Shown here: positions 1 through 3,000 of the stretch, one piece after another
How the letters are laid out: each line of letters begins with the position of its first letter
Numbering within the stretch: position 1 is the stretch's first letter
Source: Candidatus Nanohaloarchaea archaeon
GTDB lineage: Archaea; Nanohalarchaeota; Nanosalinia; Nanosalinales; Nanosalinaceae
DNA: 5,190 nt
Assembly (NCBI GenBank): GCA_041640075.1
Contig: JBEQAY010000041.1
Location: forward strand, 1 to 5,190
Reading direction: 5' to 3'
Made by a program: the position numbers

Positions 1-3000
1 TCACCTGCAGGGTAAAACTGCAGAAGAAGTAAACTTCATATCTCATTATTAATTTTCTACTCAATTTTCTGTATCTCCAGTTTACTGGTTGCAGCAGACG
101 GAAGATTTAATTCAGCGGAGACACAAACTTTGTGTCATGGTGCAGTGGAAAGGAGAAATAACTGAGAAAGCAGGACAGAAAGCAGAGCTTCTGGATCAAC
201 TTGAAGGATTTAACGTGCCAAATTTTTTCGTTATAGAACCTGAAGAGGTTAACAGGTTGTTCAAGTCAGAAAATGATCCTGAAGCAGTTCTAAACACGTC
301 TATCAACCGTACGATGAAACGCGAGATCAAGGAAGCCTACGACGAAGTAGGCATGAGCTCCGAAGTACGCGAAGCCTCCGGGAAAGCCAAAAGCCTTGTA
401 GGAGGCCAGAGAAACAGCCAGTTGATCTCGATAAGAGTTTCCGGATCTGAAAAGGAAAAATATACTTACAAGTTAAACGTTGGTTCATCTAACTTCTTTG
501 AATCGCTTCGGGAAGTGGTATCATCTTATTATCAGGAGAACTCGGATAATCCGGCTATACTGGTTCAGAAAATGGTTGAACCAGGTTATACTGGTGTTCT
601 TGAGTCAAAAGGTAGGGAAGCTATCCTTGAAGCTGTCAGCGGCCTGGGGATCTCTCTTGAAGAGGGACTTACGAAGTCTCATGTGTACCATCTCAGGAAC
701 TCCCGTATCCAGAAAAGTTTTTCACCGGACGAGCAGCTTGAGATCTCCAGAAATCCGGTCAGAGGAGAGAACCAGCGTCAGAAAGTTAAGGACGAGGAAC
801 CGCCGTTTGACCAGGAAGAGGTTGAGGAACTTGCGAGAAAAGGAGCCTCCAGTAACGTCGACCTCAAATTTGTCTACAAGAGAGGAGGTTTCCACGTAGT
901 GGATGCATATCAGTCATCGGATGATCAGAGAGGTTTCATAGTTTCAGAGAAAGGTGTAAGAGCATCTCGAGGAGAAATTAACGGAGTCGTAGGTGAAAAC
1001 ATAACTTTCAGCAGCCAGACGGTGTCGCCTGAAGATTATGCTGATGCACTGGTGGCGAGTAAAGGAGGATACACGTCCCGTGACGGCTACAGGGCGCGAG
1101 AAGCTGGCAAGCCAGCAGTCTTCCGGTTTGAAGGAAAACTGGATAACGGTGTTAAGGTCAAGTTCGGTTCTGCACAGGTTGAGCCGAGTAAAGAAGATGC
1201 CGGGAACTCAGGGTTATCTGTAAATTCTAGTTCTGGTGAAAGATCCGCTAAATCAGGAAGAACGGGTAGAGATCGTACTGAGGGCTCGAATCCGTTCAGG
1301 ACGCAGGAGGAAAGTTCTGAAAGTTTCTCTGAAGAGGTCCTGGCGACGGAGGTTCTACCGATTGATCCCAGAAGGGGGAGAGGTGTTTTCCTGAAGAGAA
1401 AAGGAAGTGAGGGATACTCTGTGGCGGATCGGAGCACAGATGCGGTAAAGATCCCTGAAGAAGGTTATCTCTCTTCTTTTGAAGATGTTTTCGCGGCGGA
1501 GGAGGATGCAGTGGTTCTTGATGCCAGAAGGTTACCTGATAGAGGAATGGTTGAAGCTGTGAGGTATCTTGAAGCGGATACAAGGGTTTTGCTTGTCAAG
1601 AACCCTGAGAGAGAGCTTCTTCAGCAGGCCGTTGAGTCAGGTTTTGATGCCATCGGCTGTCCTGACAAGAGGGTAAGCAAGGTATCGGAAGTGGTTGCAG
1701 GTATCGAGAAAAAGTTCATCATGGAGAAACTTCGGGAACTTTAATCTGTAACTAAAAAAGATTGCCGGAAAATTCCAGTATATGACGCCGAAAAATACCA
1801 GAGAAAAAAAGACTGAGGAACGCCAGAAATTCAACTATGAAGAGTTCGAAGAAGTCCTAGAAGAGATAAAAGACAAAGACTATGATACTATAGGTCTTCA
1901 AGGTCCTGATGGGATTAAGCCGCAGATAATTGATTATGCAGATCAGCTTGAGGAACAAGGTTTTGACACGGTTATAATCGGGGCTTCTACTTTTGGGGCG
2001 TGTGGGATTGCTGATGAGAAAGCTGAAAGGATGGGTGCAGACGCACTTATCCACGTAGGCCATACAAGATTCCTGCATCCTGAGAGACAGGATATGGATG
2101 ATCTAAATGTCTACTATCTTCCGTACAGGGAGGATAGGGACCTTATGGGTGTACTTGAGGAGCATTATGAGGATATAGAGGCGGATACTGTCGGTCTTGT
2201 AGGTGTAACCCAGTACATGGACCGAGCTGACAGGGCCAGAGATTTCTTAGAGGATAAAGGATTCGAAGTTGTGGAAGGAAAGACTGGTTTGAGAACTACA
2301 GAACCAGGACAGGTCCTGGGATGTGATGCGGGAGCAGCGCATAATATTGCAGAGAAGGTGGATGCCTTTGTTTTCCTTGGTAGCGGTCACTTCCATCCTT
2401 CACAGGTATCAGAGACCGGGAAGAAGGTCTACGTTGTTGACCCGTATGAGGAGCATATCTGGGTTGAGCCAGCGAACTCTCTGGATGACGAGACTCGTGC
2501 AGAGCATGCGCGTGTTATCAAGCATAAGGACAAGAAGAAGTGGGGTATCGTCACGTCAAGCAAGAAAGGTCAGAACTACATGCAGGCGGTTCAGATCGCG
2601 AAAGAGAAGCTGGAGAAGCATGGCAAAGACGTCTACGTGTTTGTTGAGGACCGTATATTTGAAGCAGATTACAAAGGATTCGACATCGATATCTATGTGA
2701 ACTGTGCATGTCCAAGGATGACAAAGGACTGGCAGGATCTTTCTTTCGTCTCAGTCGGTGCGTTGGATGTTTTGGACGAAGTTGAGATAGATCACGACTA
2801 AGTAAGTTTTGGCGAGATTGGGTTCTCTGTAAGTATCTTATTTTTGTGAATTCAGTTATCCAAAATGGTTTTAATAGTTCACTACTTATTTGTAACAAAA
2901 TGAATCGTGAGGCAACTCCTAAAAACAAGAAGACTCGTTTTGGACAGATTTCTGATTTCAATAGAGCTCGAAATGAGCTTGATGAAGAGAGTTATGGTGA

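Follow-up and report, generated by a model that had tools for sequence, protein, structure and literature searches.

What does a PEP synthase-like protein do that has lost its catalytic histidine, in a genome that encodes an intact PEP synthase (PpsA) elsewhere? We addressed this question for a 535-residue protein encoded in a window of 5,190 nucleotides (the whole stretch of DNA that was analysed) from a Candidatus Nanohaloarchaea archaeon of the family Nanosalinaceae (Table 1). The initial annotation had delimited the reading frame correctly. As judged from sequence comparisons, the product is a PpsA pseudoenzyme found throughout the phylum, with catalytic residues lost and a gene that is intact, conserved and, in one homologue, expressed.

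Table 1. Features on the pseudoenzyme contig, in order of position
Feature	Position	Strand	Basis
rpl10e (uL16), 3' end: last 9 codons and stop	3..32	+	upstream gene of conserved cluster; translation resembles uL16 C-terminus
His-less PEP-synthase pseudoenzyme gene, 535 aa	137..1744	+	orthologue of archaeal-type ppsA
ATP-grasp nucleotide domain, residues 1-263	137..925	+	VIA Z 22.1 to 5HV1; residue mapping
DPANN-type insertion, residues 72-92, with invariant Arg92	350..412	+	sequence comparison
Swivelling (phospho-His-type) domain, residues about 270-350	944..1186	+	PF00391 below cut-off; VIA Z 7.9 to 2FM4 (residues 270-355)
Codon CGT, Arg315, at catalytic phospho-histidine position	1079..1081	+	sequence; alignment register
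Low-confidence, length-variable linker, residues 356-396	1202..1324	+	pLDDT < 50
Shrunken PEP/pyruvate-binding barrel remnant, residues 401-509, without catalytic residues	1337..1663	+	fold, VIA, length series
C-terminal helix, residues 510-534, with invariant Glu524	1664..1738	+	homologous to tetramerising helix of archaeal PpsA
dph2 (diphthamide synthesis)	1782..2801	+	TIGR03682 above cut-off; downstream gene of cluster

No Pfam or NCBIfam model reaches its cut-off for this protein, as initially noted. PF00391 scores 18.2 bits (cut-off 23.1; E 0.0019), the PEP synthase model TIGR01418 (EC 2.7.9.2) 14.6 bits against a curated cut-off of 739.75, and the rifampin phosphotransferase model NF041857 15.4 bits against 999. 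The family as a whole is nevertheless not unannotated, since PF01326 is assigned to 69 of 101 homologues and names such as PEP synthase or pyruvate,water dikinase are attached to several of them. A search of the ESM Atlas returned only PPDK_N/PEP-utilizer clusters, with scores of at most 0.89.

The ATP-grasp and swivel domains that had been proposed were confirmed by the AF2 model (pLDDT 89) and by VIA structure matches, and hhalign aligned residues 2-345 with intact archaeal PpsA at a probability of 99.7. The best structural matches of the ATP-grasp domain were to the histidine-swivel kinases rifampin phosphotransferase (RPH), HapC and HpeI (5HV1 first; 9GOJ, Z 17.9). The top rank of 5HV1 is probably an effect of the cryo-EM PpsA entries 8A8E and 9DAE, which resolve only the barrel. 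RPH has its catalytic histidine in a C-terminal His domain, together with a rifampin-binding substrate domain of its own, whereas in our protein the swivel domain is central and His-less and the C-terminal domain matches the PpsA barrel.

In the ATP-grasp domain, the residues on the adenine and alpha-phosphate side of the pocket (K15, R100 and Q144) are kept, whereas those expected of a PEP synthase on the Mg/beta-gamma-phosphate side are gone: the GLGE Glu is I172, the DIEW Glu is K244, the QAR Gln and Arg are D256 and Y258, and the ATAED..FAGQ loop is missing. Residue roles were mapped from RPH (PMC13534948 and PMC4844700), where K22, a phosphate-binding lysine, and R117 are the counterparts of K15 and R100 (PMC4844700); an equivalent of RPH Q183 is also kept. 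Among 50 decayed sequences, K15 is retained in 47, R100 in 47, Q144 in 50, E524 in 49 and the histidine in one (L153). Retention of K15, R100 and Q144 could in part serve the fold. Since PMC4844700 describes RPH E297A as still active and R117A as retaining ATP pyrophosphatase activity, loss of the Mg-binding Glu is no proof of a chemically dead ATP site. The domain might still act without the histidine, as an ATP pyrophosphatase or ATPase, or as a direct kinase or ligase of unspecified substrate, and the invariant K244 (100/101 family members) and D256 (101/101) would then form a rebuilt site. We regard such residual chemistry as distinctly unlikely: outside the family the K244 column holds D, E, G, A or C, D256 is shared by only 18 of the 38 other decayed sequences, and across the clade no new invariant catalytic constellation replaces the lost loop, Glu and Arg.

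The insertion at residues 72-92 is common to intact Aenigmatarchaeota PpsA and absent from the working second PpsA. It forms the densest run of invariant columns in the family (21 columns are invariant among the 101 homologues), and Arg92, present in all groups compared, is conserved at least as well as the pocket residues, as is Glu524. This pattern would suit a purely structural moonlighting relic, either a cage or scaffold or a protein or RNA surface built from the Arg92 insertion and the terminal helix, without nucleotide binding. We doubt this strongly, as K15 persists in nearly all decayed sequences while the Mg-side residues have decayed.

In the swivel domain, the motif KGGYTS-R-DGYRARE aligns in exact register with GGxTSHAAIVSRE, and the phospho-accepting histidine of the PEP synthase motif GGxT[SCA]H is Arg315. 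The loss of the catalytic histidine, already reported in the initial annotation, extends to all 101 homologues, which have R (51), T (32), N (6), K (4), A (3), S (3), D (1) or M (1) in this column; a histidine one position later is found in four. It had been suggested that phosphate passes through another residue, which would make the protein a working phosphotransferase, with phosphate on Thr313 or Ser314 and the C-terminal domain binding the substrate that receives it. Both residues are frequent in the family (87/101 and 97/101, respectively), and a preprint on P. furiosus PPSA places the phospho-intermediate on the equivalent residue, Thr440 (bioRxiv 10.1101/2022.08.11.503304). Against this, Thr is found in only 2 of 17 Nanohaloarchaeota members from other families and does not rank among the four most frequent residues of this column in 21 decayed Aenigmatarchaeota copies, no His or Cys column of at least 50% occurs among 101 family members (highest His253, 48/101), and the C-terminal domain is a barrel remnant from which the acceptor site has been deleted. 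A Thr or Ser carrier is thus poorly supported, and we consider it highly improbable. Action of a PSRP/PDRP regulator on the retained Thr was likewise rejected, PF03618 not being found in the source genome (89% complete).

The linker that follows the swivel domain varies from 9 to 55 residues among the 101 homologues (median 30). The 130 residues beyond it had been taken for a novel domain in a protein without a PEP/pyruvate domain; they match the PpsA barrel, here eroded, and its terminal helix. Folded alone (pLDDT 94.7), this domain found the S. marinus PEP synthase 9DAE as the top VIA match (Z 11.4, rmsd 2.8, 135/135 residues; next Z 8.7), and Foldseek again listed 9DAE first, although with an E-value of only 0.012. 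Profile matches to 8A8E were found in all three domains, and hhalign aligned the last 49 columns at a probability of 91 (E 9e-7); together with the 9DAE match, this rules out a novel fold. The domain order (ATP-grasp, swivel, PEP-binding barrel) is that of a PEP synthase, with a strongly reduced barrel. In PEP synthase, the barrel supplies a catalytic set of Arg, Arg, Glu, Asn-Asp and Cys. These residues were invariant in our comparison and are deleted or replaced in the pseudoenzyme.

The C-terminal helix expected of an archaeal-type PpsA is present; it tetramerises the P. furiosus and S. marinus enzymes, according to bioRxiv 10.1101/2022.08.11.503304. The helix column equivalent to Met799 is Ile in 73 and Met in 20 of the 101 homologues. 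The dimer interface of PpsA presumably lies within the barrel stretch that the pseudoenzyme has deleted, so that the full 24-mer may not form. PF02896 is passed by the His-less relatives of 735 and 717 aa, with about 135 bits, and by one of 707 aa, with 33 bits, but not by those of 600 and 500 aa. Relatives of 735, 700, 600 and 500 aa connect the pseudoenzyme to intact archaeal PpsA; the deletions are in frame and preserve the domains.

The pseudoenzyme thus resembles the 24-meric archaeal PpsA of P. furiosus (8A8E) and S. marinus (9DAE) in domain order, adenine-side K, R and Q residues, terminal helix and rpl10e-adjacent locus. It differs in lacking the phospho-His and the Mg/beta-gamma residues, in its non-catalytic barrel of about 135 instead of about 300 residues, and in its length (535 versus 817-846 aa). 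Bacterial-type PpsA (Neisseria 2OLS and the second copy of the source genome) shares superfamily and fold, but belongs to a separate clade, without the Arg92 insertion and with another C-terminus and another locus.

The gene is not confined to one family, as had been thought. Across the phylum Nanohaloarchaeota it was found in 67 of 70 genomes, the three others looking like assembly gaps, and the clade reaches into Aenigmatarchaeota. Its context, previously called uninformative, is conserved: rpl10e lies directly upstream and dph2 downstream on the same strand at 30/30 family loci, and synteny with rpl10e is seen at 12/19 loci of other families. In the source genome, the uL16 N-terminus is found at the end of another contig (C5). 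A contig scan with a five-sequence alignment gave 80 archaeal ppsA loci, most of them intact, and rpl10e also adjoins 34 of these, among them loci of Methanobrevibacter and Methanopyri; the loci are the best 80 of 542 matches, chosen by score to the His-less profile, and related ones are not independent. By comparison, rpl10e is beside the working Nanohaloarchaeota ppsA at 0/11 loci.

In a mixture-model tree and in other trees, the pseudoenzyme nests inside Aenigmatarchaeota PpsA (SH-aLRT 98 under the mixture model); the His-less clade has a support of 89 in the mixture-model tree. Support is SH-aLRT only, and long branches may shape the ladder. Over five genome pairs, identity is 42-47% for the pseudoenzyme and, for the working PpsA, 78-82% in four pairs and 61% in the fifth.

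Such fast divergence, a frameshifted copy in G061 and the position between rpl10e and dph2 could point to a functionless relic hitch-hiking between two essential genes. However, the gene is kept in nearly all of these roughly 1-Mb genomes, also where the rpl10e link is broken, with many invariant columns and domain-preserving deletions. Pseudogene decay was rejected because, of five suspect matches, only G061 is broken inside the gene, by one frameshift; G026, G059 and G060 are truncated where their contigs end, and the TAG flagged in G040 is the terminal stop of an intact gene. Furthermore, the homologue of N. constans, LC1Nh_1145, was detected by proteomics with 12 peptides, 76% coverage and a PAI of 0.85, compared with 1.13 for the working enzyme (PMC7443923 S2a). 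We give a functionless relic very little credence.

The separate true PEP synthase that had been claimed is intact on contig C18 and carries all 19 checked sites. It scores 772 bits to Neisseria 2OLS versus 556 to 8A8E, whereas an intact Aenigmatarchaeota relative shows the reverse (744 bits to 8A8E versus 371 to 2OLS). In each of the 13 two-copy genomes that were read, it is the archaeal-type copy that has decayed, while the second is intact. Where the archaeal-type copy is intact (13 genomes), there was a single match in every case. A strict displacement rule is weakened by 14 Aenigmatarchaeota genomes, possibly incomplete, in which a decayed copy but no second copy was seen. From sequence, structure, tree and synteny taken together, the gene is very probably the original archaeal-type PpsA of the lineage at its ancestral place behind rpl10e, which lost catalysis after a bacterial-like PpsA had taken over PEP/pyruvate conversion.

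Neither PSRP (PF03618) nor pyruvate kinase (PF00224) was found in the source genome (89% complete), so that PpsA probably catalyses its sole PEP/pyruvate step and would have to be controlled. The pseudoenzyme might therefore replace the missing PSRP as a regulatory or inhibitory subunit co-assembling with the working PpsA, and both proteins are similarly abundant in N. constans. Yet the working PpsA is of a different type, has a different end and is encoded elsewhere, and the 14 genomes mentioned above have a decayed copy and no working one seen; we judge co-assembly very unlikely.

Retention of an apparently dead PpsA despite a working second copy suggests a hidden non-enzymatic job. The initial idea of a new dikinase-superfamily branch stands insofar as the protein is His-less, widely kept and accompanied by a true PEP synthase; its two-domain 'mini' form with a new substrate domain has given way to an archaeal PpsA orthologue in which all three domains are present and each of the three active sites has eroded. 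Similarly, a nucleotide-dependent regulatory role is plausible. Nucleotide-binding pseudoenzymes such as cation-independent pseudokinases have lost catalytic and metal residues and kept the adenine pocket, in genes that are conserved and expressed. The same combination is seen here, with binding predicted. The literature searched (titles and abstract starts, mostly outside subscription papers) yielded neither a His-less PpsA nor a nucleotide-binding pseudoenzyme of the PEP-synthase/dikinase family.

An oligomeric adenine-nucleotide-binding regulator or scaffold is the most likely role, and we give it about an even chance. The archaeal-type copy would have been kept for a non-catalytic job; by homology, it would oligomerise via the conserved C-terminal helix like archaeal PpsA, and, with no phosphoryl group transferred, AMP, ADP or ATP would occupy the half of the ATP-grasp pocket that contacts adenine and the alpha-phosphate. 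As they open and close, the ATP-grasp and swivel domains would then report the adenylate state to a partner, for which the gene cluster makes the translation machinery the leading guess. Archaeal PpsA may even have long had a second role, in translation or in assembly of the ribosome, which would explain why it adjoins rpl10e from methanogens to DPANN. Nanohaloarchaeota would have kept that role alone: an oligomeric AMP/ATP sensor, clustered with rpl10e and dph2, through which the loading of uL16 or the activity of ribosomes is tied to the energy charge of the symbiont. This extension is speculative and rather unlikely.

To our knowledge, retention of a dead 55-kDa enzyme throughout a phylum is unusual for genomes of about 1 Mb. 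Such retention would single out a role of archaeal PEP synthase outside catalysis that is masked in the intact enzyme, and expression in one cultivated host-symbiont pair makes the pseudoenzyme experimentally accessible. The series from Aenigmatarchaeota to Nanohaloarchaeota, with intact, part-decayed, His-less and barrel-shrunken stages, documents with unusual completeness how a gene was displaced and then turned step by step into a pseudoenzyme, and the pseudoenzyme is an independent character tying the two groups together. In both groups, many proteins that databases list as PEP synthase or pyruvate,water dikinase are thus probably not enzymes; metabolic reconstructions are affected, most of all those of Aenigmatarchaeota genomes in which the decayed copy is the only one found.

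A search for homologues of P0001, the His-less protein under study, returned at least 101 proteins with 33-100% identity (best 8000 candidates scored), 69 of which contain PF01326 and some of which bear the name PEP synthase or pyruvate,water dikinase. When they are aligned, their carrier motif lines up residue for residue with that of PpsA, and the column of the catalytic His is occupied by R (51), T (32), N (6), K (4), A (3), S (3), D (1) or M (1), never by His; a His shifted one position later was found in 4 of the 101. The core observation of the initial annotation, a PEP-synthase-like protein lacking this His, is therefore real, and the true PEP synthase was rightly said to be encoded separately, as an intact copy of 857 aa is present on contig C18. 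P0001 itself passed no cut-off in Pfam or NCBIfam, with weak matches to PF00391, TIGR01418 and NF041857.

The C-terminal domain, initially annotated as novel, turned out to be a remnant of the PpsA barrel. In the AF2 model of full-length P0001 (pLDDT 89), residues 391-535 matched 9DAE, the S. marinus PpsA barrel, with Z 11.5. When the domain was folded alone (30-sequence alignment, pLDDT 94.7) and compared with 48,161 chains, 9DAE was the best match (Z 11.4, rmsd 2.8, 135/135 residues; next 8.7); Foldseek also ranked it first, yet weakly (E 0.012). Four stretches of the family profile aligned to 8A8E, the P. furiosus PpsA, among them the last 45 positions on its terminal helix, a stretch that is weak by itself. 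Against a profile of 20 intact archaeal PpsA, the last 49 columns matched with probability 91 (E 9e-7) and residues 2-345 with probability 99.7. Length intermediates were taken from a representative search (60 hits): PF02896 was passed at ~135 bits by the 735- and 717-aa proteins without the His and at 33 bits by a 707-aa Aenigmatarchaeota protein, and was not matched by the ~600- and ~500-aa forms. According to the alignment, the barrel shrank by internal deletion, with both ends retained. The 9DAE match, the profile match to archaeal PpsA and the graded length series rule out a new C-terminal fold, and P0001 is an entire PpsA in eroded form. It shares build and ancestry with archaeal PpsA but lacks the catalytic features that define the enzyme, and should therefore not be classed as a PEP synthase. 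No description of a His-less PpsA was found in literature searches that covered few subscription journals.

The gene context had been considered uninformative; in fact, rpl10e and dph2 are conserved neighbours at loci of the family, called Nanosalinaceae in the initial annotation and in hit names, and the rpl10e link is shared with archaeal ppsA. Among 30 family loci (1.5-kb flanks), dph2 lies downstream on the same strand in all 30, and rpl10e lies upstream in 29 by tblastn and, as the thirtieth, in the window. In other families (19 loci), rpl10e was found at 12, dph2 at 8 and neither at 1, and at 11 working-PpsA loci both were absent (0/11 each). Archaeal ppsA loci, mostly intact (best 80 of 542 matches), have rpl10e within 3 kb in 34 of 80 cases, including Methanobrevibacter and Methanopyri records, and dph2 nearby in none. 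Because the rpl10e linkage also occurs at intact archaeal ppsA and is absent at working-PpsA loci, it is ancestral and marks orthology; alone it is no proof of a translation role, and a translation-linked output of the pseudoenzyme appears doubtful. Many decayed Aenigmatarchaeota copies lack rpl10e within the flanks. An ORF resembling the acidic protein of the window is found downstream of dph2 at locus L007, and N. constans LC1Nh_1142 has the same name and relative place as the oxidoreductase.

Coordinates of features in the window and at two further loci
Sequence	Position	Strand	Feature	Matches
Window	3-32		rpl10e end
Window	137-1744	+	P0001, 535 aa
Window	2900-3934	+	acidic hypothetical protein, ~344 aa	Pfam/NCBIfam: nothing at cut-off
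Window	3936-5132	-	pyridine nucleotide-disulphide oxidoreductase	PF07992, PF18267
L002	2050-4623	-	working PpsA with C-terminal tail
L200 (G061)	1266-2852	-	frameshifted copy

Three trees were computed (FastTree, 93/131 rows; LG+G4, 56 rows; mixture model, 33 rows, rooted with four non-DPANN archaea). The Nanohaloarchaeota proteins form one group (SH-aLRT 98-99 in the latter two), which nests in Aenigmatarchaeota archaeal-type PpsA, beyond intact and part-decayed copies (support 98, mixture model). Descent from archaeal-type PpsA is very probable. A single origin of the His-less group is tentative, since its support in the mixture-model tree is just 89, by SH-aLRT alone, and branches are long. 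A 2026 preprint on Nanohaloarchaea insertions supports the sister relation to Aenigmarchaea; PEP synthase is absent from its main text. In these trees, all without bacterial rows, the working copy is a clade apart (support 100); it scores 772 bits to Neisseria 2OLS versus 556 to 8A8E, whereas the intact L143 copy has the reverse preference (371 versus 744).

In the phylum of G070, an Aenigmatarchaeota record, 119 of 151 sampled genomes matched (E <= 1e-50). The loci read (30 best, 20 further regions, 8 from another search) are biased to His-less hits. In 13/13 two-copy genomes read, some related and thus non-independent and including G071 and G073 (phylum not stated), decay affects the copy with the insertion, and the other copy has all sites. 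A single match was seen where the archaeal-type copy is intact (13 genomes), and likewise for a decayed copy in 14; these counts exclude the truncated G221, the intein-split G074 and also G162, where one copy was read. Aenigmatarchaeota-type PpsA with His, intact to part-decayed, occur at L063-L068, L144, L157, L165, L169, L188 and L190, and are candidate intermediates for dating the loss of activity. PpsA frames of ~1170-1230 aa were found at L067/L146 and L115; the L146 insertion begins exactly at a Thr-Cys-His motif and is probably an intein. L085, a Candidatus Paceibacterota bacterium record with Pacearchaeota-type ppsA beside archaeal rpl10e, is probably mislabelled or from a mixed bin. 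The working PpsA of the family (L053-L062, L002) has an extra C-terminal tail of ~90 aa that ends in a conserved LGWLAKEGK-type motif and presumably resembles a winged helix; this tail is missing from the L057 copy.

A phylum search found matches in 68 of 70 genomes, corrected to 67 because the sole match in G042 is the working PpsA. Of the three genomes counted as misses, two lack rpl10e too, and in the third rpl10e lies at the edge of the sequence that was retrieved; this suggests assembly gaps. Among five suspect matches, one was intact, three were cut by contig ends and one, in G061, carried a frameshift after the swivel domain, due either to sequencing error or to a true break; an internal frameshift was seen in no other copy. 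The pseudoenzyme has diverged more rapidly than its working counterpart (42-47% versus 78-82% identity in four genome pairs, 46% versus 61% in a fifth). In N. constans, LC1Nh_1145 lies between dph2 (LC1Nh_1144) and L10e (LC1Nh_1146), in the gene order of the window; this order and the named protein P0101 make it the homologue of P0001. It is listed in the N. constans proteome with 76% coverage, 12 peptides and PAI 0.85, next to 80%, 41 peptides and PAI 1.13 for the working LC1Nh_0232 (PMC7443923). That the pseudoenzyme is a relic without function is highly improbable, and a role as regulatory subunit for the working PpsA is unlikely.

Of 19 sites compared with the working enzyme, P0001 retains K15, R100 and Q144, plus T313 and S314. 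The ATAED/FAGQ loop is missing, the Glu of GLGE and of DIEW are replaced by I172 and K244, and Gln and Arg of QAR by D256 and Y258. The catalytic His is gone, as are all seven barrel sites, which were observed to be invariant and which we take to be catalytic. The ATP-binding residues of rifampin phosphotransferase (RPH) are K22, R117, G132, T136, Q183, I186, E217, E297, Q309 and R311 (PMC13534948). The retained ATP-grasp residues belong to the adenine/alpha-phosphate side, the lost ones to the Mg/beta-gamma side. A pool of 50 decayed sequences was made up of 12 family members, 21 copies of Aenigmatarchaeota type and 17 of 19 loci from other Nanohaloarchaeota families (without L048, a near-copy of L040, and the truncated L050). 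Of these 50, 47 retain K15, 47 R100, all 50 Q144 and 49 the terminal-helix Glu E524; Arg92 of the DPANN-type insertion is invariant across all groups, including intact enzymes. A scaffold that uses no nucleotide is rather improbable. The catalytic His is present in 1 of the 50, the L153 copy (G076), which lacks most other catalytic residues; this His reflects either retention or reversion. Residue losses should not be over-read, since RPH E297A is still active, R117A retains pyrophosphatase activity (PMC4844700), and Thr440, the equivalent of T313, is the proposed phospho-site of P. furiosus PpsA (bioRxiv 10.1101/2022.08.11.503304). We nevertheless consider persisting, residual ATP chemistry just as improbable as the nucleotide-free scaffold, and phosphotransfer via Thr or Ser far less probable still.

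Within the shrunken domain, the terminal helix is preserved best. P. furiosus PpsA tetramers are tethered into a 24-mer by four Met799 residues, and S. marinus PpsA without its last 20 residues does not oligomerise (bioRxiv 10.1101/2022.08.11.503304); in the P0001 family, the Met799 column is mostly Ile (73 of 101 homologues), with Met in 20. Neither pyruvate kinase nor PSRP was found in G000, the genome of the window (89% complete). An ADP-dependent sugar kinase is listed for N. constans (PMC7443923 supplement), and in Thermococcales such kinases supply AMP to glycolytic PpsA (PMC8100219), so that AMP could be a useful signal, although the fit is indirect. Together, we see an even chance that the pseudoenzyme acts as a sensor or scaffold, in which an oligomer would present ATP-grasp/swivel heads that bind adenine nucleotide and pass no phosphate.
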